Notes under the pieces: generated by a model
The model's database searches: none
Seen by the model: only the letters and a program-made list of their open reading frames with translations
Told to the model about the DNA's origin: nothing
Made by a program: the position numbers and the translations under genes
In this document: in pieces, positions 3,015 to 28,414 of the stretch
How positions within the stretch are numbered: the first letter of the stretch is position 1
Layout: each line of letters starts with the position of its first letter
Assembly: GCA_040830765.1 (NCBI GenBank)
Contig: JBFOMH010000034.1
Span: forward strand, 1-39,706
Length of the DNA stretch: 39,706 bases
Reading direction: 5' to 3'
Source: Puniceicoccaceae bacterium
GTDB taxonomy: Bacteria; Verrucomicrobiota; Verrucomicrobiia; Opitutales; Oceanipulchritudinaceae

Positions 3015-6000
3015 ATGCCTAATACCCCAAACTTGGTCTTATTCCTGGTCACGATTCTGGTGACCACGGCGGATGCCTCGGTGCTCTTGGATGCCCACGA
3101 TTTTGAAGATCCCTTTGTCAGCTTGCCTGCCGGGAGCATTGGAACCGGCAAGCTCCCGGAAGGCTGGCTGGAAGCAACAACCGGTGATGCGACGGAGGTT
3201 GTATATGGAGAGTTGACAGTGGCTCCCAACGCCGGTGCCCAGTCGCTTCTCGCTGAGGTATCGTCTGTTGCGGGGGGCGCGGCCCGTCTTGTCAGCCCAT
3301 CGTTCACTGTCAGTGGATATGACGTAGTCCGGCTGGAATTGGCACTGCGCAGTCCCACCTCCAGCTTCGTCGACATTAAGTTGGTGGACGCCGCAGACCC
3401 GACGATTATCCTCTGGTCAAAGTCCTTTCAGACGTATCCCGAATGGAGGGAATCCGCTTCCTTGATCGCCGTTACCGGGCCGATGGATGATGTGAGCCTC
3501 GTTCTTGAGATACCCGTGACAGGCCGGGTCGAGACGGATGACTGGAAGATGGAAGGCCTGATGTACGAAGAGCTAGAGCAGGAGAGGGCTTTTGAGGACA
3601 ACCTCCTTCCAAGCAGCGTGTTCCCGCTGGGCGTGGTTGCTCCCTACATTCAGGGAGGCAACTACCGCCCGGACAGCGCCATTGTCAGCGATCCCACAGA
3701 GCCGGGTCCGTCGGGCCTTCCCTCGCTCAAAATGACCAGTTTCCCCACCGAATGGCTTGCCCGGACCGTCCGGCTGACGGCCCCTTTTCAAGGACGACCG
3801 CTGCAGGAGCACACATTCAGCGTGTGGGTTAAAGGATCTCCAGATGCCAGAGGCCAAAGGGTCATCCTGGAACTGGGCTACCACGGCGATTACCTGATCG
3901 TTCCCTTTCGGATCACGAGTGACTGGCAGCGCTACAGCATAACACAAGAACTCCCCTTCAGCTCGACTGGCGTGCACCTGGCCCGGGTCAAGTCGGACTC
4001 GTTGTACCCCGTGTGGGTGGATGGACTGCGTGTCGTGGAATCCTCAACCGATACGGACTACCGGCCCAGCGGGCCACTTGAAGTGAACCTGAAGCCAACC
4101 GCCGAATTTGACCTTTTCTTCAAGGGAGAGCCCCTGGAAGTTGAGTTTGCGCTTGTCGGCGACAGGGCAACAGCCCACGAGATGGAAGTGTGTTTGAAGT
4201 TGCCCGATCGCAGCCTTTATTTGCTGGATTCGGTTCCCGTCGAGAATTCGCCCGGTGAAGTCTTGAAAGTGAATTGGATCGCCCCGGAAAGCGATTATGA
4301 CCAGCTCGGGACATTCCTTCTCCAGATGCGGGTGCTGGATGAATTGGGAATTCCGCTGTCGAACTGGTCAGAAACACTTGTTCACCGCATACAAAGACCG
4401 CATTACGAAAACGAATTCGCGACGGACTCGCCGTTCGGCCTGCACATATTCGCGACGGATCGGGAAGCACGCCGGGCCAAGAAACTCGGCTTCAACTGGG
4501 TCCGTTCACACTATCACTTTTCCTGGTCGTGGATTCAGCCTCAAGAAGGGGGCCCTTTCAATTGGGCCAACACAGACACGTGGACGGCTGCCATGAAAGA
4601 CGCGAAACTGCAGCTCCTTGCCTTCTTCGGCTCGGCGCCTTTGTGGGCATCTGAGGCCAGCGATGGATGGAGCGGCGGCAACACCCCCTGGTACCGGTTT
4701 ACCGCCCCGCCCCGGAACGAGACAGCAACCCTGGATGCTTTTGAGGATTACGTCTTCCAAATCCTTAACCGGTACGGGGATGACATCGATGCCCTGGAGA
4801 TCTGGAACGAGCCTTTCCTGCCAGCCTTTTTCCCGGTGGACGTGGTAAACGGCGTTCCCGTCCGTGGCCCGGCGGAGCTTCTCAACAAGATGGCCCAACG
4901 GGTCCGTGACGTGGCGGACAGGATTGGCTACACCAAGCCGATCGCATGGCAAGTGGGCGGGAACTACGGTGCAGATGAACTCGCTTTCGATATGGAGAAC
5001 ATCGCGCTTGGGACCCACGAGCTGGCGGACATGTACACGATGCACCGTTATTACCCTGTGGAAATTGGCCTGCCCGGGGATCTCGTCGAGAATGATTTCA
5101 ACCTGATCCGTCAGAACTATCCGCAAGCGACCCAGACAAAGCCGCTCTGGCTCAGCGAGGGAAGCTCCATGACCAGTGAAACCTTCAATCTGTTCGAATA
5201 CCTCCCGCCCTGGAAACCGGCGAGTTCCATTGAGCAGCAGAACCGGAAATTCATCCTTTATCATCTGGGCTACCTAGCGGCCGGCTATGAAAAGCTCTTC
5301 CCCTATGCCTTCTTTGAGCAGGATGGATGGAAGGCGAACTATAACTTCATGCATCTGGATGGGCGCCTCTCGCACATTGCCTCCGTGTTTTCCAACCTGA
5401 GCTACCAGTTGGAAGGGCGGGACTTTATCCAGCATTCCTATCCGGAATACGGGGCGACGGCTTGGGAATTCGCCGCACGCGAGGAAAACGGGTCATCCCT
5501 TGCCGTGGTCATGAACCCGGCCAAACGAACGATCCTGATGGAAAAACCGGCCGGGATGGAGATTCTGGATGTTTATGGGAATCCTTTATCCATCCCCTCC
5601 TTTCTCGATTCCGCGTTTTTCTACTTGCAGGCTGATGACTTGACCAACGCCTGGCCCTTGCTGGCCGACAAGCTGGTCCAGTCGGACTCCCGGAGCCCCT
5701 TTGTCGGTTTCCCGGACGAAGGGGATTCATGGCGTCAAACCTACATGGGCCGGTTGAACGATTACTGGTGGCCCTTCCTGATCCACGAGGATATGGGTAC
5801 CCTTTACACCATTCCCACCACGCGTACCCGGGCCCGAACGTTTTACCTGTACGATTATCAACTGGAGAGCTGGATCTATACAGGGGCCGAAATTTACCCA
5901 TGGGTCTATCACCTCGGTCTCAAGGCCTGGTATTACCAGATTCCCGTTTCCACTCTATCCCAACGCTGGCTGTGGCTCATACTGGACGGGCAAGGCAGTT

Positions 6001-6023
6001 GGGTGACCACAGATGACATTTAG
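3015..6023 (+). CDS. Secreted modular clan GH-A glycoside hydrolase (GH39-like TIM barrel) with N-terminal CBM-like beta-sandwiches and a Trp-rich C-terminal tail
   Basis: 1002 aa. Signal peptide-like start (ADA-S). CBM4/9-like segments (HTFSVWVKG...ITSDWQRYS). Barrel motifs FGLH, LGFNWVR, acid/base EIWNEP, TMHRY and nucleophile LWLSE. Last ~110 aa are Trp/Tyr-rich. Confidence 0.78.
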   Translation: MPNTPNLVLFLVTILVTTADASVLLDAHDFEDPFVSLPAGSIGTGKLPEGWLEATTGDATEVVYGELTVAPNAGAQSLLAEVSSVAGGAARLVSPSFTVSGYDVVRLELALRSPTSSFVDIKLVDAADPTIILWSKSFQTYPEWRESASLIAVTGPMDDVSLVLEIPVTGRVETDDWKMEGLMYEELEQERAFEDNLLPSSVFPLGVVAPYIQGGNYRPDSAIVSDPTEPGPSGLPSLKMTSFPTEWLARTVRLTAPFQGRPLQEHTFSVWVKGSPDARGQRVILELGYHGDYLIVPFRITSDWQRYSITQELPFSSTGVHLARVKSDSLYPVWVDGLRVVESSTDTDYRPSGPLEVNLKPTAEFDLFFKGEPLEVEFALVGDRATAHEMEVCLKLPDRSLYLLDSVPVENSPGEVLKVNWIAPESDYDQLGTFLLQMRVLDELGIPLSNWSETLVHRIQRPHYENEFATDSPFGLHIFATDREARRAKKLGFNWVRSHYHFSWSWIQPQEGGPFNWANTDTWTAAMKDAKLQLLAFFGSAPLWASEASDGWSGGNTPWYRFTAPPRNETATLDAFEDYVFQILNRYGDDIDALEIWNEPFLPAFFPVDVVNGVPVRGPAELLNKMAQRVRDVADRIGYTKPIAWQVGGNYGADELAFDMENIALGTHELADMYTMHRYYPVEIGLPGDLVENDFNLIRQNYPQATQTKPLWLSEGSSMTSETFNLFEYLPPWKPASSIEQQNRKFILYHLGYLAAGYEKLFPYAFFEQDGWKANYNFMHLDGRLSHIASVFSNLSYQLEGRDFIQHSYPEYGATAWEFAAREENGSSLAVVMNPAKRTILMEKPAGMEILDVYGNPLSIPSFLDSAFFYLQADDLTNAWPLLADKLVQSDSRSPFVGFPDEGDSWRQTYMGRLNDYWWPFLIHEDMGTLYTIPTTRTRARTFYLYDYQLESWIYTGAEIYPWVYHLGLKAWYYQIPVSTLSQRWLWLILDGQGSWVTTDDI

Positions 6024-6036
6024 AATTACCAAAGTT

Positions 6037-9033
6037 ATGAGACTATCCCAAATATTCCTTATTGCCTGCGTACTGTTGCCATCCGGGGCACAGGCCCTTG
6101 TTGAGCTGTATTCCCAGGACTTCGAAGACGCCTTCGTCGATCTTCCACCAAGCAGCATTGGCACGGGCAAGCTTCCCGCCGGTTGGGTGGATGCCACTGC
6201 CGCCACAACAGAGGTGGACTATGGAGAGTTGACGGTGGCTCCCAACGGGGGACTCCAGTCCCTTCTTATCGACGTATCATCGGTTGCGGGGGGGGCGGCG
6301 AGGCTTTCCAGTCCATCCTTCAGTGTAAGCGGGCATGAAGTTGTCCGGTTGAATTTGGCCTTGCGCAGTCCTGCGTCCGGTTTTGTCAACATTCTGCTGG
6401 TGGACAGTGCAGACCCATCGGTGGTTTACTGGTCCAAGTCCATCCAGATGAGCCCGGAGTGGAGGATGTTCTCATCCCTGATCGCGGTCACCGGGCCAAT
6501 GGATGCGGTGAGTTTCATCCTTGAGACGCCTGCAATGGGTCGGGTTGAGACGGATGACTGGACGATCGAGGGCCTGATGTTTGAGGAACTTGAACAAGAG
6601 CGATCCTTCGATGAAAACCTGCTTCCCGGAAGCGTCTTTCCGTTAGGGGTGGTGGCTCCCTACAATGCCGGGGGAAATTACCGGCCCGACGATGCCGTTG
6701 CCAGCGATCCAGCCGAGCCGGGACCCTCGGGGCTTCCGTCGCTGCGGATGACCAGTTTTCCGACAGAATTCTTTAGCCGGACCGTGCGTTTAACGGTGCC
6801 TTTCCAGGGGCGTCCCCTGCGGGAACATACCTTCAGTGTGTGGCTTAAGGGCTCTCCGGGTGCGTCGAATCAAACGGTGACGCTTGAGCTCGGCTACGAC
6901 GGTGATTTCCAGAGGGTGCCCGTCCAACTCTCTCGTGACTGGCAGCGCTACAGCGTCACGTACACACTTCCCTTCAGTACGACGGGGGTGCATCTGGCCC
7001 GGCTCAAGTCGAGCTCGGAATTTCCCTTCTGGGTGGATGGGCTGCGGGTTGTTGAGTCGGCCACGGATACGGACTACCTGCCCGGCGGGCCAATTGAGGT
7101 TTCGCTGAGGCCAACCGCCGAATACGACGTCTGTTTCAAGGGGGAGCCCCTGGAAGCCGAGATGGCGCTGGTCGGGGAGCGGGAGACTGCCTATGAAGTG
7201 GAGGTACGGGTGAAACTGCCCGAGGGGGGCCTTTACCTGCAGGATTTTGTTCCCCTGGAGGATTCACTCGAGGCAGTCCTGAAAAGATTCTGGACTGCTC
7301 CGGAAAGCGGTTTTGACCGCCTTGGTACCTATGTCGTCCAGATGCGGGTGCTGGATGAGCTGGGCATCCCCTTGTCGAAGTGGGCCGAAACCCTCGTCCA
7401 CCGTGTACAACGGCCACATTTTGAGAATGATTTCGCGCCGGACTCACCCTTCGGCCTGCACATATTCGCGACGGAGCGGGAGGCCAAGAGGGCCAAGAAA
7501 CTCGGCTTTAACTGGGTCCGCACAAGCTATCAGCTCGCCTGGTCCTGGCTCCAGCCGGAAGAGGGAGGGGCATTTAACTGGACCGACCTGGATGAGCGCA
7601 TGACTGCCCTCAAGGATGCGAAACTGCAGCTCCTGGTTTATCTCGCGGCGGCCCCCATGTGGGCATCCGAGGCCAGCTTTGATTGGGTCGGCGGCAATTC
7701 CTTCTGGTACCGGTTTACGGCACCTCCCCGCAATGAGACCGCCACCCTTGATGCCTTTGAAGAGTACGCCTTTGGCATCCTTGACCGCTACGGGGATGCC
7801 ATCGATGCTCTGGAGCTCTGGAACGAGCCCTTCCTGCCGGCCTTTTTCCCGGTGAACGTGGTTGACGGCGTTCCCATCCGCGCCCCGGCGGAGCTCTATA
7901 ACAAGATGGCCCAGCGGGTCCGCAGCGCGGCGGACAGGGCGGGCTACACCAAACCCATCGCCTGGAACGTGGGGGGGAACTACGGCGGGGATGAGCTCGC
8001 TTTCGACAATGAGAATATCAATCTCGGGACGGCCGACCTGGTTGATCTCTATACCATGCACCGGTACTCCTCGGTGGATATTGGTCTGCCCGGTGATATC
8101 ATAGAGGATGACATTGCATTGGTTCGCGACACCTATCCGCAAGCAACCACAGAGCGACCGGTCTGGCTCAGCGAAGGGAGTTCCATGACCAACGACACCT
8201 TTAACCTCTATGAATTCAGTCCGCCGCGGATCCCGGCGAGTGCTGTTGCGCAGCAGAGCAGGAAATTCATCCTGTACCATCTGGGTTATCTCGCGGCCGG
8301 TTATGAACGGCTCTTTCCGTATGCCTTCTTCGAACAGGATGAATGGACGGCGAATTTCAATTTACTGCATCTGGACGGGCGGCTATCTCACCTGGCCTCG
8401 GTGTTTTCCAACCTCAGCTACCAACTGGAGGGGCGGGACTTCATCCAGCATGCCTATCCGGAATACGGAGCGACGGCATGGGAATTTGCCGCGCGTGAGG
8501 ATAACGGCTTATCACTTGCCGTGGTCTTGAACCCGGCCAAACGAACGATCCTGATGGAGAAGCCCGCTGGAATCGAGATGCTCGATTTCTACGGAAACCC
8601 GCTCGCCGTGCCCGCCATCCTTGACTCCCGGTTTTCCTACCTGCTGGCGGATGACCTTGCCGCCTCCTGGCCATTGCTGGAAAACGTGCTCGTGCAATCC
8701 GACATCCGGAGCCCCTTCAGCTTTTTCCCTGACCAGGGCAACTCCTGGCGCCAGACCTACATGGGGCGGTTGAACGATTATTGGTGGCCTTTCCTGATGC
8801 ATGAGGAAATGGGCGCGCTTTATGCCGTTCCTGCGTCTGCCTCCCGGACATTCTACTTGTACGATTATCAATTGGGGAGCTGGACCTATTCGGGAGCCGG
8901 TATTTATCCCTGGTTTTATCACCTAGGGCTCCAAGCCTGGTGTTACCAGGTTTCTGGTTCAGCCGATGCTCAACGCTGGTTGTGGGTGCTTGATGGTGAG
9001 CAAGGGCGCTGGGTCAGGGTGGACGAACTCTGA
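6037..9033 (+). CDS. Tandem paralog of 3015..6023: secreted GH39-like modular hydrolase with Trp-rich tail
   Basis: Collinear with the upstream gene, with ELWNEP and VWLSE intact. Start placed at ATG 6037 (MRLSQIFLIACVLLPSGAQA, signal peptide) instead of 6013, which overlaps the previous gene. Confidence 0.78.
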   Translation: MRLSQIFLIACVLLPSGAQALVELYSQDFEDAFVDLPPSSIGTGKLPAGWVDATAATTEVDYGELTVAPNGGLQSLLIDVSSVAGGAARLSSPSFSVSGHEVVRLNLALRSPASGFVNILLVDSADPSVVYWSKSIQMSPEWRMFSSLIAVTGPMDAVSFILETPAMGRVETDDWTIEGLMFEELEQERSFDENLLPGSVFPLGVVAPYNAGGNYRPDDAVASDPAEPGPSGLPSLRMTSFPTEFFSRTVRLTVPFQGRPLREHTFSVWLKGSPGASNQTVTLELGYDGDFQRVPVQLSRDWQRYSVTYTLPFSTTGVHLARLKSSSEFPFWVDGLRVVESATDTDYLPGGPIEVSLRPTAEYDVCFKGEPLEAEMALVGERETAYEVEVRVKLPEGGLYLQDFVPLEDSLEAVLKRFWTAPESGFDRLGTYVVQMRVLDELGIPLSKWAETLVHRVQRPHFENDFAPDSPFGLHIFATEREAKRAKKLGFNWVRTSYQLAWSWLQPEEGGAFNWTDLDERMTALKDAKLQLLVYLAAAPMWASEASFDWVGGNSFWYRFTAPPRNETATLDAFEEYAFGILDRYGDAIDALELWNEPFLPAFFPVNVVDGVPIRAPAELYNKMAQRVRSAADRAGYTKPIAWNVGGNYGGDELAFDNENINLGTADLVDLYTMHRYSSVDIGLPGDIIEDDIALVRDTYPQATTERPVWLSEGSSMTNDTFNLYEFSPPRIPASAVAQQSRKFILYHLGYLAAGYERLFPYAFFEQDEWTANFNLLHLDGRLSHLASVFSNLSYQLEGRDFIQHAYPEYGATAWEFAAREDNGLSLAVVLNPAKRTILMEKPAGIEMLDFYGNPLAVPAILDSRFSYLLADDLAASWPLLENVLVQSDIRSPFSFFPDQGNSWRQTYMGRLNDYWWPFLMHEEMGALYAVPASASRTFYLYDYQLGSWTYSGAGIYPWFYHLGLQAWCYQVSGSADAQRWLWVLDGEQGRWVRVDEL

Positions 9034-11795: not shown

Positions 11796-12740
11796 TTATG
11801 GGGCGGGGACGAATACCCAGCCACTGTCATTTCCAATGTAGATGTAGCTGTTCAGGCTTACCACCCAGATCCATGGATCGAGGGTGACATTCACCCAACC
11901 CAGCCACGGGGTGGTATCGGCCCAACCGTCCACATCGACGGGATAACCGTACCAATCGGTCTCTTCACTGGGCAAGAGCGCCACGGCCGTGCCCTTGTAC
12001 CCGATGTTCCCGCCGGCATTCATGAGTATCAGATAGTCACCGGGCGCAGTAGCAGTGGCGGTGATCTGTGCACAGGCGAACAGGCGCTCATCCCCGAAGA
12101 AACCTTCCGCACCGCCGCTGGTTATGGCCATGAATTTGTCGTCCACGATGGCACCATCGGCCGTATAGTGGGTAACCATCAGGGTGTGGCTGTCCTGGAA
12201 GGAAAAATCCCAGCTGGAGTATTTATAACCATCGTTGAACCAGTGGTAGACCGTAACTTCCTGATCACTTGCCAGGTCAATCCGGGTGATCAGGGTGGAT
12301 AGCTGGTCTCCAGGCAGCCAACCGGAATGCGAGACCCCCCAGTAATCCGATCCAAACGGGAATGGACTGCCATCGGTCCACTCAAAGACAGGATGCCAGC
12401 GATCCGGATCCGGCCACTGGTTGGATCCATAGGCTCCTCCGCCGGGATCTTCCGCATTTGTTCCCACGATGAATTGGCCCCCGGCTTTCTGGGCCAGAAT
12501 ACCGATGGTCCCATCGTTACGGGGAATCATGTAATCGACGTACGGTGGCTCCGATACCCGGATGCTCTTTTCGCTGTCAATGGTATCGTTGAAGTCCGGT
12601 GCGGGGCCTACTGCTTCCTGATAGCCAAATGGGAGGGGCTCTCCATCCTGGATCTTTGTCACTTCCAATGTGAGCGCCTGCAAGGACACGCAGGTAGCAG
12701 CAATTCCACAGGTAAGTAAGGGGCGTTTTCTTATTTTCAT
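11796..12740 (-). CDS. Secreted protein of unknown family (paralog 1 of 4) with a short Trp-rich C-terminal tail
   Basis: Start placed at ATG 12740 (MKIRKRPLLTCGIAATCVSLQA-LTLEV, signal peptide) by alignment to the paralogs. Contains AYGSNQWPDPDRWHPVFEWTDG; tail begins WYGYPVDVDGWADTTPWLGWVNV. Confidence 0.85.
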   Translation of the reverse strand: MKIRKRPLLTCGIAATCVSLQALTLEVTKIQDGEPLPFGYQEAVGPAPDFNDTIDSEKSIRVSEPPYVDYMIPRNDGTIGILAQKAGGQFIVGTNAEDPGGGAYGSNQWPDPDRWHPVFEWTDGSPFPFGSDYWGVSHSGWLPGDQLSTLITRIDLASDQEVTVYHWFNDGYKYSSWDFSFQDSHTLMVTHYTADGAIVDDKFMAITSGGAEGFFGDERLFACAQITATATAPGDYLILMNAGGNIGYKGTAVALLPSEETDWYGYPVDVDGWADTTPWLGWVNVTLDPWIWVVSLNSYIYIGNDSGWVFVPAP

Positions 12741-12861
12741 AGGATAGACACAAGTAATCAGACTGAATCGATTCGGTTCAACAAGGGTTCGGTATAATTT
12801 TCTCTTTATGGGCAAAAGCATATTCATGTGAAATGCCTTTCGCGGTTTTGTTCCCCGATTA

Positions 12862-12877
12862 ATTCGCCCCTGCGAAA
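12862..12877. promoter_or_regulatory. Palindromic operator ATTCG-N6-CGAA (probable IclR site)
   Basis: ATTCG-CCCCTG-CGAAA in the divergent gap between paralog 1 and the IclR gene. Confidence 0.7.
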
Positions 12878-12959
12878 CGCCGGGAAGAGGGCATAAAAAA
12901 GCACTTCATTTACATTTGAGAGTGCCCTCTACCGCGCTTGAATTGTGCCCATTTGCGGA

Positions 12960-12987
12960 TTTACAAACAACCAGTCAGCCCTATTAT
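12960..12987 (+). promoter_or_regulatory. Candidate sigma70-type promoter for the IclR gene
   Basis: TTTACA (12960-12965), 16 bp spacer, TATTAT (12982-12987), about 50 bp upstream of ATG 13039. Confidence 0.35.
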
Positions 12988-13038
12988 TTTGGTGAATTTT
13001 GAAGGATTCCCTTGGATTCCCTCAAATTGGAGAAAGAA

Positions 13039-13800
13039 ATGGCCAGAACACGCAAACCTGAGAGTAATCACTTCAACATGGGCATCCGGATTCTCGAATG
13101 CCTGGTCAATTGGCCGACATCGCGAGGCGTGACGCAGCTGGCTGAAGAACTGGATTTAGCGCCTTCATCCACCCATGACTTGCTCAAGGTGCTCTGCGAG
13201 CTGGGCTTCGCGATTCATGATCCCACGACACGCAGATATGCCCCCAGTCCGAGGATTTTTGAATTCATCCATCACTTCAGTACCCAATTCGGGATTACAC
13301 CTAAGGTCCAGGAATTGATACACAAGCGCTCAACTGAACTTCAATTATCCATTTTCCTCGGTACCGCCTGGCAGAATGAGTCCTATGTTGTCTGTACCAG
13401 CGGTCCGCTGGCAGGGGGTTCGTCACTTGGTTCACATGGCCCCATTGTCCACACGGCGATTGGGAAAGCACTCATCGCCACCTACATGAAGGATGATTGG
13501 GAAACCTACGCCACCTATTATGAGGAACTCGAATATTCTGATTCAGACCCAGACAAGGCAAGGGAGGCCTTTCTGAAAGAGTTGGAACGGATTTCAGAAT
13601 CCGGTGTCGCTTGGAACCTTTTCCACACCGATTCGGATGTCTTTTCCGTTGCTGCACCATTGAGCACCCGGGGAACGAACCGGAAGTACGCCGTCGCGCT
13701 GGTCTTTACCAAGGCAATGTATCATATCCTCGACCGATCGAAGATGGAGGAAACGGTCAAGGAGATAGCCACCGAAGTGGAGGACGCGATTTCTTTCTGA
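13039..13800 (+). CDS. IclR family transcriptional regulator
   Basis: N-terminal wHTH (GIRILECL...GVTQLAEELDLAPSSTHDLLKVLCELGF...RRY) and C-terminal effector domain (HTAIGKAL, ELERISESGVA, SVAAPL). ATG 13039 is preceded by GGAGAAAGAA. Confidence 0.9.
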   Translation: MARTRKPESNHFNMGIRILECLVNWPTSRGVTQLAEELDLAPSSTHDLLKVLCELGFAIHDPTTRRYAPSPRIFEFIHHFSTQFGITPKVQELIHKRSTELQLSIFLGTAWQNESYVVCTSGPLAGGSSLGSHGPIVHTAIGKALIATYMKDDWETYATYYEELEYSDSDPDKAREAFLKELERISESGVAWNLFHTDSDVFSVAAPLSTRGTNRKYAVALVFTKAMYHILDRSKMEETVKEIATEVEDAISF

Positions 13801-13812
13801 AGCTCGTTGTCT

Positions 13813-15123
13813 TCAGGAAAGAATGCCCCCGGAATCGAGCAGGACCTTCCTCACATCGGAATAGGGCACGTCCCTGATCGCTGTTCTATTGGTGGAAGCC
13901 AAGGCTGCCGTTACGCCAGCCGCTTCCCCGATGGCCATGGCTGAAGGCGATACCCGGAAAGAGCTCATTGCTTCCTGGGTAGCGGAGATACTCCGTCCGG
14001 CGACGATGAGGTTGTCCGGTCCTTCCGATGGGATAAGGCAGCGCAGCGGAATGTCATAGTGCGTGCCCCGCTCCAACTCCACCAACTGTGTCGTGGAGGA
14101 CTCCGGAGAGTGCACGTCCAGGGCGTAGCAGCACTGGGCGATGACATCCTCGAATTGACGGCATGACAGCACATCTTCACCGGTCAGAGTATACAGTCCC
14201 TTGATTTGCCGTGATTCCCTGACCCCTATTTGCCGGGCCCGTTCGATGATTTCGACCTTTTCAAATCCTGGCAGGTACTTCCTGAAGAACCGGATTCCTT
14301 CCTCAATCTGCTGCCCGCCAATTTTCTCCGCTTTCTTTAGTTGTTCCGGGTCGGTGGGATCTTCCACGAACACCCGGCCAAAATTGACCGTGGCGTTAAG
14401 TGGTTCACCGGGAATATTCATGATGGAAGCAACATGGTCCCTTGGAATGGTCAGGTCCCCGGTTGCCTGGGCCGCGGCCACTTCCTGATGGGCACCGCTT
14501 AAACAGATGAAAGGTTGATTGATCTGCGTATCATCGCTAATTGCCGATGGCATTTTTTTTCGCAACAGGTCAATGTCGATGGGACCCAGTTTATAACAGA
14601 AGGTCAACGGCATCACTGCCCGGTCTTTTTGCCTCCCGAAGGTGTAGGGAACGCCGGCGGCATTGGCAACAATGGCATCTCCGGTGGAATCGACCAACGT
14701 GTTGTAGATTAATTTTTGCCCATCCCGAAGAAGAAGAAAGTGGTTCCCTTCGATATTCGTTTCCACTCCCCCGAACTGGGATCGGTAGAAGATATCCACC
14801 CCGGCACGTATCACCATTTCCTCAAGGAGGGTAGCGAATACGTCAGGGTTGTAGGGTTCCATAGCATATTCGAACCCCCGCGTGGCGAAGATGGCCTTGC
14901 GCTCAATCAACTGATTCCTGATGTCTGCAAATATGCCCCCGATGATCAGGCGGTATCCATCCAGGTGCGCAGGACAAAAATTATTCACCAGGGCGGCAGT
15001 TCCCATTCCACCCAATACGTCATGCCGCTCAATCAATGCCACCTTGTCCGTCAATCTGGCCGCCGCTATGGCGGCACCAATTCCCGCAGGTCCTCCCCCG
15101 GCAACTACGACATCATATGCCAT
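13813..15123 (-). CDS. FAD-dependent oxidoreductase (FAD_oxidored-type)
   Basis: YDVVVAGGGPAGIGAA dinucleotide fold, LGGMGT, DSTGDA, GVRESRQIKG, YDIPLRCLIP and NLIVAGRSISA motifs. Start at ATG 15123 with a GGAGG RBS upstream. Confidence 0.9.
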   Translation of the reverse strand: MAYDVVVAGGGPAGIGAAIAAARLTDKVALIERHDVLGGMGTAALVNNFCPAHLDGYRLIIGGIFADIRNQLIERKAIFATRGFEYAMEPYNPDVFATLLEEMVIRAGVDIFYRSQFGGVETNIEGNHFLLLRDGQKLIYNTLVDSTGDAIVANAAGVPYTFGRQKDRAVMPLTFCYKLGPIDIDLLRKKMPSAISDDTQINQPFICLSGAHQEVAAAQATGDLTIPRDHVASIMNIPGEPLNATVNFGRVFVEDPTDPEQLKKAEKIGGQQIEEGIRFFRKYLPGFEKVEIIERARQIGVRESRQIKGLYTLTGEDVLSCRQFEDVIAQCCYALDVHSPESSTTQLVELERGTHYDIPLRCLIPSEGPDNLIVAGRSISATQEAMSSFRVSPSAMAIGEAAGVTAALASTNRTAIRDVPYSDVRKVLLDSGGILS

Positions 15124-15217
15124 GGAATTATTGATCCTCCCAGTGCGTTTCACTGGTTAATGGGTGCACGCCAAAAGTTTTCCTTCAATGACAATGGCAT
15201 TGGCCCAAGGGATTTGC

Positions 15218-15233
15218 ATTCGCAAGGACGAAT
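15218..15233. promoter_or_regulatory. Palindromic operator ATTCG-N6-CGAAT
   Basis: ATTCG-CAAGGA-CGAAT, immediately followed by an extra half-site ATTCGTCACTG (15235-15245). Confidence 0.7.
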
Positions 15234-15279
15234 AATTCGTCACTGTAATCTAATTGCCCTTCTGGTCACAGAGGCAGTC

Positions 15280-15295
15280 ATTCGCCACTGCGAAA
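15280..15295. promoter_or_regulatory. Palindromic operator ATTCG-N6-CGAA
   Basis: ATTCG-CCACTG-CGAAA, the second site in the oxidoreductase/PEP-CTERM divergent gap. Confidence 0.7.
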
Positions 15296-15437
15296 GGGAA
15301 TCAGATTCTGTAGCCTTAAAGTGTGTACAAGGCAGGTCGCATGTTCCTATCCCTTGAAGCGTGCTCGGCACTACTCGTCGAATGCGTCTTGGCTATACCG
15401 CCTCTAAATTGAACCAAACAAGGAAATGCGAAGTAAT

Positions 15438-16289
15438 ATGAAAAAATATATTGTTCTACTCCTCGCCTCAGGCTTTGCGCTTACCGCATCAGCTCAGGTA
15501 GCCACTGTCTATGAAGGCTTTGACTATGCCATCGGCAGCGGCATATTGGGCCAGGGGCCCGCTGGTGCCGCCGGTACCTGGACTGGCAACGACACCAACG
15601 TTTTGGCTGGCAGCCTCAACTACACCGCCACCGCTGCTGCGCTTCCCGCTTCCGGTGGTCACATCAGCATTGATTTCATCCGCCCGAAGCTCGACATCGT
15701 AGCTGGCTCGGCTATTCGTGACACCGACGGCGACTCGACCGTATGGGTCAGCTGGCTCGCCCAGTACACGTACCTCGACGGTTACTACAGTGCCGTGGAA
15801 ATTAGCGCCAGCGATAGCTCTTCCGGTGCTGACACCTCCATCAATGCCCGTACCTTGAATATTGGAAAAACAGGAGGTGACCCAATTGACACCTTCGACC
15901 CATACTTCAATGTTATGGTGAACAACACCAGGGGTGGTAGCACCTTCGACCTCGACGGCCCCGACGGCGGCTTCTCCGACACGGGTGTCAACTTCTATGT
16001 TGTGAAGATGAACTTCGTTAACGGTGGGGATGACTCAGCTCTCATCTGGGTTAACCCAACTGTTGCTGAGTTGACTGGTGAAACAGGTGCTACCGTTGTC
16101 ACTACAGGAAGCCTGAATGGTTTCGACCACGTCTTCGTCGCCGACTTCAGCGGCAACGGTGATCTTGCCTTCGACGAACTCCGCGTTGGTCCGTCCCTCG
16201 GCAGCGTTGCGGTTCCCGAGCCGTCCACCTACGCGCTCATCCTTGGTTTCCTCGGACTCGGCTTCGCCCTCTGGCGCCGCCGCAAGTAA
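15438..16289 (+). CDS. PEP-CTERM sorting-domain protein with a beta-rich passenger of unknown function
   Basis: Signal peptide MKKYIVLLLASGFALTASA (alternative start 15426). C-terminus VPEPSTYALILGFLGLGFALWRRRK has the PEP motif, TM helix and basic tail. Confidence 0.9.
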   Translation: MKKYIVLLLASGFALTASAQVATVYEGFDYAIGSGILGQGPAGAAGTWTGNDTNVLAGSLNYTATAAALPASGGHISIDFIRPKLDIVAGSAIRDTDGDSTVWVSWLAQYTYLDGYYSAVEISASDSSSGADTSINARTLNIGKTGGDPIDTFDPYFNVMVNNTRGGSTFDLDGPDGGFSDTGVNFYVVKMNFVNGGDDSALIWVNPTVAELTGETGATVVTTGSLNGFDHVFVADFSGNGDLAFDELRVGPSLGSVAVPEPSTYALILGFLGLGFALWRRRK

Positions 16290-16315
16290 GTCCCTGTCTT
16301 ATCGCTGTCTTTCAC

Positions 16316-16352
16316 AGCCTCACCCCTTCGCCGGGGTGGGGCTTTTCTTTTT
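16316..16352 (+). terminator. Intrinsic terminator
   Basis: AGCCTCACCCC-ttcgcc-GGGGTGGGGCT followed by TTTCTTTTT. Confidence 0.85.
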
Positions 16353-16368
16353 CCACCCGATTCTGCCC

Positions 16369-16388
16369 GGATTCGCCATCACGAATCC
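16369..16388. promoter_or_regulatory. Palindromic operator, strongest copy
   Basis: GGATTCG-CCATCA-CGAATCC, a perfect 7 bp inverted repeat upstream of 16525. Confidence 0.75.
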
Positions 16389-16524
16389 AGATAGTCGCTA
16401 CACCATCTATTCGATTGGAATCCGGCACCAGCAATCTCAACCTCATGGTTAAGTTAGTGGGCAATTTAAGTTCACCTTCCTAGCTCCAAGTCAAGCCGTG
16501 CAAAAACTCCAACCTCTTGCATAG

Positions 16525-17370
16525 ATGAAGAATGTCGTTCCTTTCTTAACCATTTCCTTGGCGCTTGCTAGTACCCTTTCCGGCCTGACGATTGATGTTC
16601 AAAAGATCCTCGATGGGCAGCCCCTCCCGTTCGGCTATCAGGAGACAAACGGACCCTCGCCGGACTTCAGTTCCACCATCACCCCATCGGAGGTTCTCAA
16701 TTTGTCCGCGGGGACTTTTGTCGATTACTTGATTCCCCGCAATGATGGGACCATCGGCATCCACACACAAAAGGCGGGCGGATCGTTCATCACCAGCAAC
16801 AATGCCGACGATCCCGGTGGGACAGCCTACGGGTCCAACCAGTGGCCGGACCCTGACCGCTGGCATCCGGTCTTCGAGTGGACAGACGGCGCCGCACCCA
16901 ATGCCAGCGGCAGCGACTACTGGGGCGTGTCCCACTCCGGTTGGGGTTCCAGCGATGTTTCCCAACTTGATATCCGGATTGATCTCGCCACGATGGAGGA
17001 AGTAACCGTCTACCACTGGTTCAACGATGGCTGGCTCTATGAGGGAAGGCGGGGCCCCAACCATGACACGCTCACCGGACATACCCTTACTGTGACTCAT
17101 TTCAATGCAGTCGATGCGGTGATTGGCACGGAGAGTGTTTTGCTGACCCAGGGTGGTGCGGAAAGTTACTTCGGTGACCACCGGATATTTGCCACGGCAA
17201 CGATCACCGCGACAGCAACAGCCCCCGGTGACTATCTCATCTTGTCCAATGTGGGCGCGAATATCGGCTACAAGGGAACCGCTGTTTCGGTTGTTCCGGA
17301 ACCAGCCGCTTTAGCCCTGATGGCCGGGATGCTCTGCCTGGCCGTTGTCTTATGGCAACGGAGGGCGTAA
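16525..17370 (+). CDS. Secreted protein of unknown family (paralog 2 of 4) ending in PEP-CTERM
   Basis: Signal peptide and the same core as 11796, 17573 and 18547, but the C-terminus is VPEPAALALMAGMLCLAVVLWQRRA. Confidence 0.88.
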   Translation: MKNVVPFLTISLALASTLSGLTIDVQKILDGQPLPFGYQETNGPSPDFSSTITPSEVLNLSAGTFVDYLIPRNDGTIGIHTQKAGGSFITSNNADDPGGTAYGSNQWPDPDRWHPVFEWTDGAAPNASGSDYWGVSHSGWGSSDVSQLDIRIDLATMEEVTVYHWFNDGWLYEGRRGPNHDTLTGHTLTVTHFNAVDAVIGTESVLLTQGGAESYFGDHRIFATATITATATAPGDYLILSNVGANIGYKGTAVSVVPEPAALALMAGMLCLAVVLWQRRA

Positions 17371-17397
17371 TTTTCAGGATTAAGGGTTAAACAAGGC

Positions 17398-17428
17398 GCC
17401 TCACCCTCTCGGGGGTGAGGCATTTTCT
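17398..17428 (+). terminator. Intrinsic terminator resembling the 16316 hairpin
   Basis: GCCTCACCC-tctcgg-GGGTGAGGC followed by ATTTTCT. Confidence 0.75.
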
Positions 17429-17442
17429 CTGGAACCTCGCGA

Positions 17443-17458
17443 ATTCGCCAATACGAAT
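17443..17458. promoter_or_regulatory. Palindromic operator ATTCG-N6-CGAAT
   Basis: ATTCG-CCAATA-CGAAT followed by CCAGAT, as at 16371. Confidence 0.75.
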
Positions 17459-17572
17459 CCAGATGGCGGAGAGAGTTAAATTGGATTTGAGTGAAAAGTC
17501 CCGCCTCCTCACGTTCAAGATTACTTAGGTTACATGCATCAACAAGCAAACTCTTGAACCCCTCATCAACAA

Positions 17573-18514
17573 ATGAAAAATCTCCTATCTATTGCCGCAC
17601 TATTCTCAGCGTTCGCCTGCTCGCTTTCAGCCCTGACCCTGGAATTGCAAAAGATCCAGAACGGTGAACCGCTTCCCTTCGGGTATCAAAACACCAATGA
17701 AGGCGCACCGGATTTTGCCCCTGTTGAGTATGATACGTCCTTGATAGTCCGCGTCTCCGAGCCCCCCTATGTCGACTACATGATTCCCCGCAACGACGGG
17801 ACCATCGGTATTCTGGCCCAGAAGTCCGGGGGAGAGTACATAGTCGGGTCCAACGCCGACGATCCGGGTGGGACGGCTTACGGGTCCAACCAGTGGCCGG
17901 ATCCGGACCGTTGGCATCCCGTCTTTGAATGGACCGATGGTACACCGTTCCCCTTTGGTTCGGATTACTGGGGGGTCTCCCATTCCGGGTGGAGCCGAAG
18001 CGATGAATCCAACCTCATCACCCGCATTGAGCTCGCCTCGACGGAGGAACTGACCATCTACCACTGGTTCAATGATGGTTGGGCCTATCAGGGCCCACGT
18101 GGTTCCAACCATGACACCCTCACTGGACACACCTTGACGGTCACCCAGTACACATCAGCTGGCGCTGAGGTCGCTTCCGAGAGTGTTTTGATTATGCAGG
18201 GCGGAGCCGAGGATTTCTTTGGTGATCACCGGATGTTCGCCACCTCGATCATCAAGGCCACGGCAACAGCCCCCGGTGACTTTCTCATCATTTCCAACTT
18301 TGGCGCGAATATCGGCTACAAGGGCACAGCCGTGGCCATCCTGGAAAGCGAAACCCCTGACTGGTACGGATACCCCGTGGATCCGGAAGGCTGGGCCGAT
18401 ACAACCCCATGGCTGGGTTGGGTCAATGTCACCTTTGATCCATATATCTGGGTGGTCAATTTGGGCAAATACATCTACATCGGGGATGATTCCGGCTGGG
18501 TGTATGTTCCCTGA
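17573..18514 (+). CDS. Secreted protein of unknown family (paralog 3 of 4) with a short Trp-rich tail
   Basis: 313 aa. Signal peptide ending SLSA-LTL, conserved core, tail TPDWYGYPVDPEGWADTTPWLGWVNVTFDPYIWVVNLGKYIYIGDDSGWVYVP. Confidence 0.88.
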   Translation: MKNLLSIAALFSAFACSLSALTLELQKIQNGEPLPFGYQNTNEGAPDFAPVEYDTSLIVRVSEPPYVDYMIPRNDGTIGILAQKSGGEYIVGSNADDPGGTAYGSNQWPDPDRWHPVFEWTDGTPFPFGSDYWGVSHSGWSRSDESNLITRIELASTEELTIYHWFNDGWAYQGPRGSNHDTLTGHTLTVTQYTSAGAEVASESVLIMQGGAEDFFGDHRMFATSIIKATATAPGDFLIISNFGANIGYKGTAVAILESETPDWYGYPVDPEGWADTTPWLGWVNVTFDPYIWVVNLGKYIYIGDDSGWVYVP

Positions 18515-18546
18515 TTCTTCGGATTGATTCATCAATCCCAAATGTA

Positions 18547-19494
18547 ATGATGAAGAGAATACTATCCGCTACGGCATGTTTAATAGCGTTTGCCGGCTCC
18601 CTATCAGCCCTTACCGTGGAAGTGCAGAAGATCCAGAATGGGCAGCCGCTACCTTTTGGTTACCAATTGACCAATGAAGGTGCGCCCGATTTTGATCCTG
18701 TCGAGTATGACACGTCCCTGATTTTATACGTTTCGGACCCTCCCTATGTCGACTACATGCTTCCCCGCAACGACGGGACTATTGGAATTCTTGCCAATAA
18801 GGTCGGGGGACAATTCATCGTCGAAACAAATGCTGAAGATCCGGGCGGGACCGCCTATGGGTCCAACCAATGGCCGGATCCGGATCGCTGGCATCCCGTC
18901 TTTGAATGGACGGACGGCACCCCGTTTCCCTTTGGCTCAGGCTACTGGGGTGTCTCCCACTCAGGTTGGGCATCCGATGATGAATCCCATCTGGTTACTC
19001 GGGTTAATCTCGCCTCCTTCGAAGAAGTGACGATCTACCACTGGTTCAACGATGGCTGGGCCTATCAGGGCCCGCGTGGCTCAAATCACATCTCCTTGAC
19101 GGGGATGAATTATACCATCACGCAGTATGCTGCAGATGGATCGGAGATCGCCTCGGAACTCTTTATCATTGAGCAGGGCGGCGCGGAGGACTTCTTCGGT
19201 GATCACCGGATGTTCGCCACCGGAATCATCAAGGCGACAGCAACAGCTCCGGGAGACTACCTCATCATCGAGAATCTTGGCGGCAGTGTCGGTTTCAAGG
19301 GGATGGCGGTGGCTATTCTTGAGAGCGAGACCCCCGATTGGCATGGCTACTCTGTGGATCCGGAAGGTTGGGCCGACACAACCCCATGGCTGGGTTGGGT
19401 GAATGTCACCTTTGACCCATGGATATGGGTGGTTAATTTGGGCAGCTACAATTATATCGGGGATAATTCCGGGTGGGTGTACGTTCCGAAGTGA
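18547..19494 (+). CDS. Secreted protein of unknown family (paralog 4 of 4) with a short Trp-rich tail
   Basis: 315 aa tandem near-copy of 17573..18514, starting 32 bp after it. Confidence 0.88.
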   Translation: MMKRILSATACLIAFAGSLSALTVEVQKIQNGQPLPFGYQLTNEGAPDFDPVEYDTSLILYVSDPPYVDYMLPRNDGTIGILANKVGGQFIVETNAEDPGGTAYGSNQWPDPDRWHPVFEWTDGTPFPFGSGYWGVSHSGWASDDESHLVTRVNLASFEEVTIYHWFNDGWAYQGPRGSNHISLTGMNYTITQYAADGSEIASELFIIEQGGAEDFFGDHRMFATGIIKATATAPGDYLIIENLGGSVGFKGMAVAILESETPDWHGYSVDPEGWADTTPWLGWVNVTFDPWIWVVNLGSYNYIGDNSGWVYVPK

Positions 19495-19707: not shown

Positions 19708-22011
19708 ATGAGCACGCTATTTACCTCCGCCCCAAGTTTATACGGTGTCCTAAAGCGAACAGCGCTTTTCCTTTGCGCATTTACCATGTCTTCCGCCGTC
19801 CACACGGTTGTTGCCCAGGATGACGATGCGGGAAACGAACCGGTCTTTGAGTTGTCACCGTTCGAGGTTGTAACTGATGAGCAGTATGGTTACCGGGCCA
19901 ATACCAGCGTTTCCGGTACAAGAACCGCCACCGCGGTGCGTCAATTGCCCTTCACCCTGCAGATCGTGACCGATGAACTGATTGACGACATGAATGTTCC
20001 CGATCTGGAGGACGTCCTCCTGTTTACGGCGGGTGTCCAGGAGAACAGGGAAAACGTGGGCAACTACGGCAGCTTCAACGTGCGGGGAATCCGGCAGCTC
20101 TACACCCTGCGCAACGGGTTCCGTCATTATGGTCCCAATGATGCCAGTACTCTTTCCCGCGTTGAAGTGGTCAAGGGACCGGCCGGACTTCTCTACGGGC
20201 AGGTCTTTCCGGGGGGCGTTGTCAATGCCGTGACCAAGAAGCCACTACAATTCAGCCAGCAAGTCCTGGAGGTACAGGCGGGCAGCTATGGGACTTACCG
20301 GGCCGTGGTGGACTCTACCGGACCATTGAACAAAAGCAAGAGCTTGAGTTACCGCTTGATCGGAACCTACGGGGAGATCGGCAGCTTTGTGGAGTTTTAT
20401 GAGAGGCGGGTCAAGAGCATCGTCCCGATGATCACCTTTGCCCCCACCAAGTGGCTCAAGTTGACCCTGGAGCTTGAGCACTATGAGAACCTTGAAGATG
20501 CCCCGCCCCCCGGCATGCTCGCCATCAATACGGATGAGCTGGCCGCGGCGATCGAGAATCCGGACGATCCATACGGGTTGGTTGATAACCCCAAAGCCGC
20601 CAACGCCAGTATCGCCAAGCCGGATACCTTCAATGGCATTGCCACCTGGCTGCCGCGAAGCTTCAATATCAACGGACCCGGAACCTACAGTGATTACACC
20701 AAGGAGAGCGCCACGCTGTACACGGACATCCGGTTCTCTGACAGCATCAGTTTCCGCTCGGCCCTGAATTACCTCGATTCCGAGAATGACCGCTACGGCA
20801 GCTTCGTTTCCGACACCTTGCGCACCGGGATCGACTTTGTCAGCCGGGCCAATTACGGCATCAACACGAACGTAGTCTTCACCAGTCAGAATGACTTTTT
20901 CTTCACTTTCGATACAGGACCCATTGCGCACAAACTTCTGGCGGGCGGTGAGTATTACAGGGATAAATTCACCAATTACAAGGATTCGGAAGTCAGGCGC
21001 TTTGCCCGCTTGCCGAGTCCCTACGATTTCATCACGCGCGGATGGGCATCCTACTTTCAGTATCTTGTCCCCATCCGTGACTTTGAGCGGAGCCCGCGTC
21101 CCGAGGAGCTGACTGGATTGGAATTCAACATAGGGGAGGAAACCACTGGACATGCCTATTACTTCGTCGACCAGCTGACCTTTTTCAATGAGAGGGCTCA
21201 CGTGGTCGCTGGCACCCGTTACGAATCCTATGAAACAAACTTCGGTGCGGATAGTGGGAAAAATTCCAACTGGACCTACCAGGGAGGGGCCATGTTCGAC
21301 CTTGTGGATTGGATTTCCATCTTTGCCAGCTACAGCGAAAGTTTCTACCGTAACGGGTTTCTCAAGGATAACTTCATTGATCCGGACCTGCGGGAGACAA
21401 TGGGCCCGCCGCAATTGGGTGACGGGATTGATATCGGCTTCAAGTGGGAAACCGCAGGAGGCCGCCTGGCCGGCACGATGTCCTATTTTGATCTGGCACA
21501 AACAAACATTCCTCTGGATGTCGTCATTGACGACGAAAATGTCCAGGTGCTGGCAGGGGAGCGTACCTCCACCGGTTTTGAATTTGATCTCCATTACGCA
21601 CCGGTTCCCCATTGGCAGGTGATATTCAACTACACTTACCTCGATGCCATCGATGTGGATTCAGGATCGGAAATGCCCAATGTTCCCACCCACCAAGCCA
21701 ACCTCTGGACGCGTTACGAATTTCTCGAGGGAAGGTTCGAGGGGGTGTTTCTCGGCGGTGGTGCGCGCTACCTCGGCGACCGCCCGGCGGGCAATGAAAC
21801 CAACCTTTTCAACCGGCCGAACTACGTCTTTGATGCCAAGGCCTACACCCATATCGATGTGTTCATGGGGAAGGAATTTGAGTTCAGCAACCACACCCTT
21901 CAGCTCCAGTTCAATATCACCAACCTGACAGACGAAAAGTACATCCGGGGCGGGCAACTGCTACCCAGCGAACCCCGGCGTTACCTGCTCTCCCTTAAGT
22001 CCACCTGGTAG
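19708..22011 (+). CDS. TonB-dependent outer membrane receptor
   Basis: 767 aa. Signal peptide, VFELSPFEV/GYRA..SVSGTRT start, plug motifs FNVRG and RVEVVKGPAGLLYG...GGVVNAVTKKP, C-terminal NITNLTDEKY and a terminal aromatic residue (LKSTW). Confidence 0.93.
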   Translation: MSTLFTSAPSLYGVLKRTALFLCAFTMSSAVHTVVAQDDDAGNEPVFELSPFEVVTDEQYGYRANTSVSGTRTATAVRQLPFTLQIVTDELIDDMNVPDLEDVLLFTAGVQENRENVGNYGSFNVRGIRQLYTLRNGFRHYGPNDASTLSRVEVVKGPAGLLYGQVFPGGVVNAVTKKPLQFSQQVLEVQAGSYGTYRAVVDSTGPLNKSKSLSYRLIGTYGEIGSFVEFYERRVKSIVPMITFAPTKWLKLTLELEHYENLEDAPPPGMLAINTDELAAAIENPDDPYGLVDNPKAANASIAKPDTFNGIATWLPRSFNINGPGTYSDYTKESATLYTDIRFSDSISFRSALNYLDSENDRYGSFVSDTLRTGIDFVSRANYGINTNVVFTSQNDFFFTFDTGPIAHKLLAGGEYYRDKFTNYKDSEVRRFARLPSPYDFITRGWASYFQYLVPIRDFERSPRPEELTGLEFNIGEETTGHAYYFVDQLTFFNERAHVVAGTRYESYETNFGADSGKNSNWTYQGGAMFDLVDWISIFASYSESFYRNGFLKDNFIDPDLRETMGPPQLGDGIDIGFKWETAGGRLAGTMSYFDLAQTNIPLDVVIDDENVQVLAGERTSTGFEFDLHYAPVPHWQVIFNYTYLDAIDVDSGSEMPNVPTHQANLWTRYEFLEGRFEGVFLGGGARYLGDRPAGNETNLFNRPNYVFDAKAYTHIDVFMGKEFEFSNHTLQLQFNITNLTDEKYIRGGQLLPSEPRRYLLSLKSTW

Positions 22012-27437: not shown

Positions 27438-27451
27438 GGCAGGGGAAGGCC

Positions 27452-28346: not shown

Positions 28347-28414
28347 GTATCTTGATACCGAGGAGGGAACTTTCCTTTCCTTCCGGTTACGACATACCAA
28401 GACTGCACCCACCT

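Follow-up and report, generated by a model that had tools for sequence, protein, structure and literature searches.

A Trp-rich module alternates with PEP-CTERM and other ends on a predicted jelly-roll domain in a Puniceicoccaceae bacterium

Four paralogues with two kinds of C-terminus

We analysed contig JBFOMH010000034.1 of the Puniceicoccaceae bacterium assembly GCA_040830765.1 (Verrucomicrobiota, order Opitutales, family Oceanipulchritudinaceae), one whole contig of 39,706 nucleotides, hereafter the window, from a genome of 3.99 Mb that is 97% complete. It contains four paralogous genes, A to D, which encode a signal peptide, a shared core of 235 amino acids (aa) and one of two tails: a PEP-CTERM sorting signal in B, or a Trp-rich tail in A, C and D that we call the W-module. 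The W-module has a short form, 57 aa in A, C and D, and a long form of about 115 aa.

11796..12740, (-) strand: paralogue A, 314 aa from the ATG at 12740 (a longer open reading frame, ORF, starts at 12827); N-terminal signal peptide, core 11979-12674, short W-module about 11802-11975
16525..17370, (+) strand: paralogue B, 281 aa; signal peptide, core 16585-17289, PEP-CTERM 17293-17367
17573..18514, (+) strand: paralogue C, 313 aa; signal peptide, core 17633-18337 (predicted jelly-roll), short W-module 18341-18511 (predicted all-beta)
18547..19494, (+) strand: paralogue D, 315 aa; signal peptide, core 18610-19314, short W-module 19318-19491

A first-pass annotation made from the DNA letters had described these four ORFs with a signal peptide and a common core, and our coordinates agree with it. 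The proteins are 56-80% identical in pairwise comparison, and at 71-82 of the 139-176 identical residues per pair, about half, the codons differ synonymously, as had also been noted, which indicates that selection acts on the protein. No lipobox was found in A to D by a regular-expression search, the N-terminus of B being read directly. Five sequence blocks (PLPFGYQ, PRNDGTIGI, a 22-residue stretch, YWGVSHSGW and YHWFNDG) and the G(Y/F)KG(T/M)AV end of the core had been reported as invariant; this holds within A to D but not among 22 full-length homologues from outside the window (fragment P0027 left out), where PRNDGTIGI occurs in 2, the 22-residue block in 1, PLPFGYQ in 4, YWGVSHSGW in 5 and YHWFNDG in 12, with the shorter HWFNDG in 21. 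We therefore rejected the long blocks as family-wide functional motifs; they mark recent duplication and paralogy.

The end of B had been called a canonical PEP-CTERM. It does contain VPEP, a hydrophobic helix (KD19 1.91) and RR, that is, a PEP motif, a transmembrane helix and a basic cluster, in a slightly degenerate rather than canonical form. B scores 18.9 bits against PF07589, below the cut-off of 20.7, and TIGR02595 is not listed for it; a hidden Markov model (HMM) trained on the PEP-CTERM sequences of this genome matches it at E 8.8e-10. Three PF09721 matches above the cut-off provide exosortases in the genome that could be cognate to B. The tails of A, C and D lack a transmembrane helix, as the annotation had stated (KD19 at most 0.95). 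The KD19 of the W-module has a median of 0.62 and a maximum of 1.26, its net charge has a median of -5, and the combination of PEP motif, transmembrane helix and basic cluster is absent from it.

The core matches no Pfam or NCBIfam family, in line with the earlier failure to assign it. A profile search retrieved 27 proteins with the core, four of them from this window, plus one longer protein; the named homologues come from Oceanipulchritudo sp. and Verrucomicrobia, and the core is present in 4/37 genomes of the family. Four distant relatives of the core (L070, L071, L074 and L082, E 1e-13 to 1e-21) also have W-module ends, which extends the core family beyond its 27 close matches. Conserved segments of the core include H164-W165-F-N-D-G-W170-x-Y172 and D218-x-R220-x-F222.

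Exchange of tails and spread of the W-module

Tabulating the C-termini of the 27 core homologues gave W-module ends in 26 (one or two short W-modules in 20, a long one in 6) and PEP-CTERM in B alone. On these sequences the PEP version of the core is a single recent derivative. In the core tree B is placed among W-tailed paralogues, the tails must have changed at least six times, and the long-tailed sequences are rejected as a monophyletic group (p-AU 1.5e-5). A second adjacent pair, C12:62534 with a W-module and C12:63620 with PEP-CTERM, is 57% identical up to the junction. The genes C2:82881/81500 were considered as a further PEP/W swap pair and discarded, these neighbours not being homologous.

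A further end, the F module, is about 70 aa long with an aromatic-aromatic-Arg final strand and was found by HMM on 21 exported proteins (one more was added by eye in later counts); C5:104444-105667, C26:52701-55367, L078 and P0177 are examples, and P0177 has no Pfam or NCBIfam match. The F module ends two large proteins that each carry three tandem cores, giving the core at least four alternative ends: PEP-CTERM, short W, long W and F. In the TonB receptor cluster at C5:104444-115049, endonuclease I occurs in F-tailed and W-tailed versions, together with two PEP-CTERM genes and a further W gene.

The three tail types exclude one another. The genome encodes 23 PEP-CTERM proteins, and W, PEP-CTERM and F never share a protein: none of the 96 W-module proteins of the genome carries PEP-CTERM or F, and none of 149 representatives from outside it combines PEP-CTERM with W. 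Mixed tail types occur in 15 of 21 multi-member passenger families. With the seed sequences left out, all 15 paralogues of LRR_5, EndoI, RCC1, LTD, FGE and repeat proteins have a W or F tail, as against 1/43 sulfatases, and the catalytic families are mixed (GH16 4/6, PL1 3/5, GH88 2/4, GH95 1/3); because W proteins served as seeds for these families, the contrast is to be taken as no more than indicative.

Iterated HMMs place the W-module on 96 proteins, 55 with the short form and 41 with the long, or about 3% of the genes of the genome; the short form taken by itself is found on 60 proteins in 74 copies, the long form on 41 proteins. Profile comparison with hhalign shows the two forms to be homologous (95.9% and 91.8%). 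Short W-modules were found in 34/37 genomes of the family and not in the 295 other genomes searched in the phylum, and they fall into 1063 clusters at 50% identity. Long W-modules are wider spread, in 36/37 genomes of the family, in 49/151 genomes of the order across 12 families and in two genomes outside the order; these searches scored a limited number of candidates per genome, and a miss is to be read as 'not found'. Signal-peptide-like starts occur in 51/60 short-form and 33/41 long-form proteins as against 664/2210 background ORFs, in a test that is a crude heuristic and with a background that includes shadow ORFs.

No database family describes the tail. Among 26 long and 58 short tails there was no meaningful Pfam or NCBIfam match, no Pfam family covered a tail in 55 W-module proteins scanned at full length, and searches of PDB sequences with the short and long W profiles returned nothing significant (only 7pl5, at E 1.1). 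Modelled alone, the short tail is a small beta-sheet domain with a predicted local distance difference test score (pLDDT) of 84. It had no Foldseek match at E<=0.001 and a best Z of 3.0, at which PipX, OCRE and others tied; this lack of a match to the predicted model does not prove a new fold. The ESM Atlas gave only unnamed clusters, at 0.76-0.82, which serve as leads only.

The first-pass annotation had proposed that the Trp-rich tail fills the PEP-CTERM slot as a localisation module. Comparative evidence supports this in part: the tail is a separate, mobile unit carried by 96 unrelated proteins, most of which have a signal peptide, and it is exclusive of PEP-CTERM and takes part in a second swap pair. 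A localisation role is the best reading of the W-module.

The predicted core fold, the neighbouring receptor and the rest of the window

The annotation had suggested a ligand-binding or catalytic core and had proposed structure prediction and profile searches of the core alone. These yield a jelly-roll-like model and no characterised family by sequence, and the predicted fold looks like a binding jelly-roll, not an enzyme. AlphaFold2 models the core as all-beta (pLDDT 85). The nearest structures, with Foldseek in agreement, are galactose-binding-like jelly-rolls: a tailspike domain (Z 8.1), Fbs2 (7.9), the PP2 lectin and a porphyran carbohydrate-binding module (CBM) (both 7.7) and CBM61 (7.4), with a root-mean-square deviation of 3.0-4 Å over 120-150 residues; a Z of 7-8 is the background level for this search, and the matches include non-glycan binders (Eph, MAM and TNF domains). 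A CBM-like jelly-roll is the likely fold class of the model. The core resembles CBM61, CBM22, CBM16 and the Fbs/PP2 lectins in predicted fold but differs from them in having at most about 13% identity, large insertions and no single best family. It matched neither CBM models nor solved structures by sequence, PDB sequence searches with its profile gave nothing significant, and existing choice-of-anchor models did not match it. The three tandem cores in each of the two large proteins suggest a binding module rather than an enzyme.

The remaining features of the window that bear on the paralogues are as follows; the three genes with a long W-module lie beyond the coordinates given in the first-pass annotation.

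3015..6023, (+) strand: secreted protein of 1002 aa; long W-module 5664-6020
6013..9033, (+) strand: 1006-aa paralogue of the preceding protein, with weak GH42 and CBM4_9 matches; long W-module 8680-9030
15426..16289, (+) strand: gene E, a PEP-CTERM protein with a passenger different from the core
16316..16343, (+) strand: terminator-like hairpin after E, followed by a copy of a 25-nt repeat at 16368-16392
17398-17421: similar hairpin after B, followed by a 25-nt repeat copy at 17440-17464
19708..22011, (+) strand: TonB-dependent receptor, directly downstream of D
28352..33469, (+) strand: fn3/beta-helix/Calx-beta protein of 1705 aa; long W-module 33116-33463

The receptor at 19708 offers a possible functional context for the core. 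Its locus also holds GH94, GH31-PA14 and an IclR regulator. In the genome as a whole, a W gene lies immediately beside 10/31 TonB receptors, in 9 cases on the same strand, compared with 22/311 large secreted controls (7%; Fisher p 1.4e-4), with gene order taken from greedy ORF calls; an earlier list gave 7/21 receptors. The frequency of W genes is 11/61 at distance 1 from a receptor, 5/58 at distance 2 and 1/58 at distance 3. Among relatives, a tailed gene adjoins 7/9 homologues of the 19708 receptor and a core gene adjoins 4; these loci, taken with flanks of 1.5 kb, represent only three related genomes, and LacI regulators and sulfatases are often nearby. Since only 11/96 W genes adjoin a receptor, the W-module itself is not receptor-specific. 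A complex prediction for receptor residues 63-767 with residues 21-313 of protein C scored 0.03, which speaks neither for nor against an interaction.

From the adjacency seen genome-wide and in relatives, our leading inference is that the predicted jelly-roll core could act for the receptor in the manner of SusD, SusE or SusF in the polysaccharide-utilisation loci of Bacteroidota. The likeness lies in small exported binding-type proteins beside a TonB receptor, with glycosidases, sulfatases and LacI/IclR regulators around them. A to D differ in that they are not lipoproteins, show no homology to the Sus proteins (no Pfam match) and have PEP-CTERM or W-module ends instead.

The passenger of gene E has distant homologues elsewhere in the genome that carry the W-module (26% identity, E 9e-7). 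The 25-nt repeat core occurs only three times in the genome, and the hairpin and repeat that follow both E and B may record a duplication of the 3' end of E or may be a regulator site. Most of the 23 PEP-CTERM genes are followed by a strong hairpin (median -28 kcal/mol, where W genes have -21 to -22 and random genes -20), which suggests stand-alone transcripts; a promoter and terminator scan was at chance level overall. Contigs from four sequencing runs (two recorded as RNA, two guessed to be RNA) cover portions of the locus, for the most part with at least 99% identity. These contigs also span intergenic DNA and neighbouring genes and thus demonstrate neither transcription nor an operon.

The tandem paralogues of about 1000 aa at 3015-6023 and 6013-9033 are possibly an unclassified glycosidase family. 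Homologues of the 1705-aa protein lie near core genes in relatives; upstream of it in the window, 25974-28300 contains ORFs of 487 and 282 aa with one weak DUF455 match only. Elsewhere in the genome, C5:130168-175242 is an ORF of 15,024 aa.

Possible roles of the W-module

We give an even chance to the W-module being a non-covalent surface tether of exported proteins in Opitutales. It would be an independently folding, acidic, aromatic beta-sheet domain and a non-covalent counterpart to the covalent PEP-CTERM, doing a job analogous to that of SLH, choline-binding or type IX secretion system (T9SS) C-terminal domains in other phyla. Proteins would be exported by Sec on a type I signal peptide, as the heuristic suggests, and would cross the outer membrane, probably through one secretin system; the W-module would then bind a surface polymer or lipid made by the cell, leaving the passenger to work outside. 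The passenger in this window, the predicted CBM-like jelly-roll, would most likely capture glycans for the adjacent TonB receptor and act like SusD/E/F within a polysaccharide-utilisation locus, as its gene context suggests. Tails would be exchanged by recombination right after the last strand of the core, in keeping with the repeated swaps on the tree.

Several observations weigh against a surface tether with a glycan-binding passenger. Genome comparisons revealed no dedicated partner or ligand pathway. The idea of phosphocholine as the ligand found no support, LicD being found in one of five W-positive genomes and not in this one. Secretins occur in all five genomes tested, including one without W-modules, and are for this reason uninformative about a partner. 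The heuristic nature of the signal-peptide count, the background level of the core fold scores, the few genomes behind the receptor loci and the small share of W genes beside receptors, all given above, count on the same side.

Of the other explanations, a secretion signal is the strongest, if an unlikely one: the W-module would be recognised by a dedicated outer-membrane translocon, like the T9SS C-terminal domain (CTD) or a type II secretion tag, and possibly cleaved. It is C-terminal in 87/96 copies in this genome and in 136/149 outside representatives, its presence across families is largely all-or-many, with f8, f72 and f79 as mixed families, it is exclusive of other tails and its cargo resembles that generally associated with the T9SS. 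However, 6 of the 96 are N-terminal and 3 internal, copies are often in tandem, 10/149 outside representatives are non-terminal, the terminal residue is not conserved and no partner was identified. The nine N-terminal and internal copies favour a non-cleaved tether over a sortase-type signal.

We consider it improbable that the W-module acts as a CBM-like domain directing enzymes to a polymer outside the cell, such as an algal or host glycan. It has the composition for this (about 17% Trp+Tyr), it can sit at either end or in tandem, and many of its passengers are carbohydrate-active enzymes. Among 55 W-module proteins scanned with Pfam, nearly all short-form, the passengers are of extracellular types and include GH16, GH95, GH10, GH88, PL1, chondroitinase- and heparinase-like lyases, sulfatase and endonuclease I, along with CBMs, LRR_5, RCC1, CAP, cadherin and a multiheme cytochrome. 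Yet the presence of the cytochrome, nuclease, LRR and RCC1 proteins and of enzymes of unrelated specificity speaks against a shared external target, as do the replacement rather than accompaniment of PEP-CTERM by the W-module and the lack of a CBM fold match. The cytochrome, a multiheme c-type protein with a short W-module (C17:118049-119677, L014), is a candidate surface cytochrome.

No more credible is a dockerin-like or self-associating domain by which cargo would be assembled on a vesicle, a coat or a scaffold made of protein. The W-module is small and folded, is carried by about 3% of genes and has tandem copies and a dockerin-like diversity of cargo, all of which would suit such a role, but no scaffold candidate appeared in the listed W-rich regions, no systematic scaffold search being made, and the alignment shows no duplicated calcium loop. 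Retention in the periplasm, on peptidoglycan or the inner face of the outer membrane, is very improbable: all evidence for the surface is indirect and one passenger is a c-type cytochrome, but endo-acting and adhesin-like passengers are tailed while 42/44 sulfatases are untailed.

In a Verrucomicrobium genome outside the order (G080; L108-L110, C45, C20), seven near-identical long W-modules, apparently recently expanded, are interleaved with GT2/GT4, methyltransferase and O-antigen-ligase/TPR genes, which hints at a link to surface glycans. The O-antigen-ligase/TPR gene was considered as a dedicated partner and set aside, not being found in this genome or in G302 and being present in a W-negative genome. 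Other unknown genes of the G080 cluster have no homologue in this genome.

Among known systems, the W-module is close in pattern to PEP-CTERM/exosortase (TIGR02595, PF07589, PF09721), which likewise puts a C-terminal suffix on many unrelated exported proteins per genome and occupies the same slot after the core. It differs in having no PEP motif, transmembrane helix or basic cluster, in being acidic and folded, and in that it may be N-terminal, internal or tandem. The T9SS CTD of Bacteroidota, which we take to be PF18962/TIGR04183, is also a folded beta domain and terminates dozens of proteins, generally known to be carbohydrate-active enzymes, LRR proteins and nucleases; the W-module has no sequence or fold match to it, is not strictly C-terminal and has no translocon identified. 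Por_Secre_tail models did not match the W-module, the Ig-like CTD fold is not among its listed structure matches, and a search of the genome for SprA gave no match, as did its control. Choline-binding repeats (presumably PF01473), SLH and dockerin are, as is generally known, position-flexible, repeatable modules, and choline-binding repeats are aromatic beta-hairpins. The W-module differs from these in having only the non-significant 7pl5 match and no structural match, with LicD not found in the genome, and it matched no Pfam or NCBIfam model of these families.

PEP-CTERM has been defined (PMC1569441), families with alternative sorting signals have been described (PMC3237569) and the choice-of-anchor concept has been formulated (bioRxiv 10.1101/2023.03.06.531300; PMC11878542). 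The earlier idea of two anchoring routes for one domain thus follows a pattern already known as choice-of-anchor, and with at least four ends rather than two. The core resembles choice-of-anchor domains (choice-of-anchor A, IPR026588/PF20597) in having several ends, with W and F as putative anchors, and differs in that its usual anchor is an unnamed module, not LPXTG, PEP-CTERM or a T9SS CTD. Interchangeable anchors are a known concept, and the W-module is unnamed in Pfam and NCBIfam; it is an unnamed domain family, probably surface-tethering, that fills a known kind of role, and the modelled core would be a new choice-of-anchor-type jelly-roll passenger. No description of the W-module was found in the literature searched, which left most subscription journals and supplements outside its scope and in which surface display of enzymes or binding proteins in Opitutales is not addressed. 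Cultured relatives exist, and Oceanipulchritudo coccoides is named in PMC13274419; the available part of that article contains none of PEP-CTERM, 'C-terminal' or 'anchor', and that of bioRxiv 10.64898/2026.01.08.698421 none of PEP-CTERM, TonB or 'domain'. What we add is the relationship of the short and long forms, the tail swaps placed on a tree, the mutual exclusion of three tail types, the W-modules at non-terminal positions and the adjacency to receptors.

Opitutales specialise in degrading complex glycans of marine and host origin. More speculatively, and we think this possible but doubtful, the order might possess an undescribed, lineage-wide surface-display system in which the W-module is held or read by a dedicated receptor, translocon or polymer on up to about 100 proteins per cell, and in which the W- and PEP-tailed jelly-rolls beside TonB receptors are counterparts of SusD/E/F. 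The W-module provides a marker for surface-proteome prediction in 12 or more families of Opitutales, sorts hundreds of 'hypothetical' proteins and lets phylogenetic profiling lead directly to the missing machinery, and the PEP/W paralogue pairs within one locus are a natural controlled comparison of two routes.

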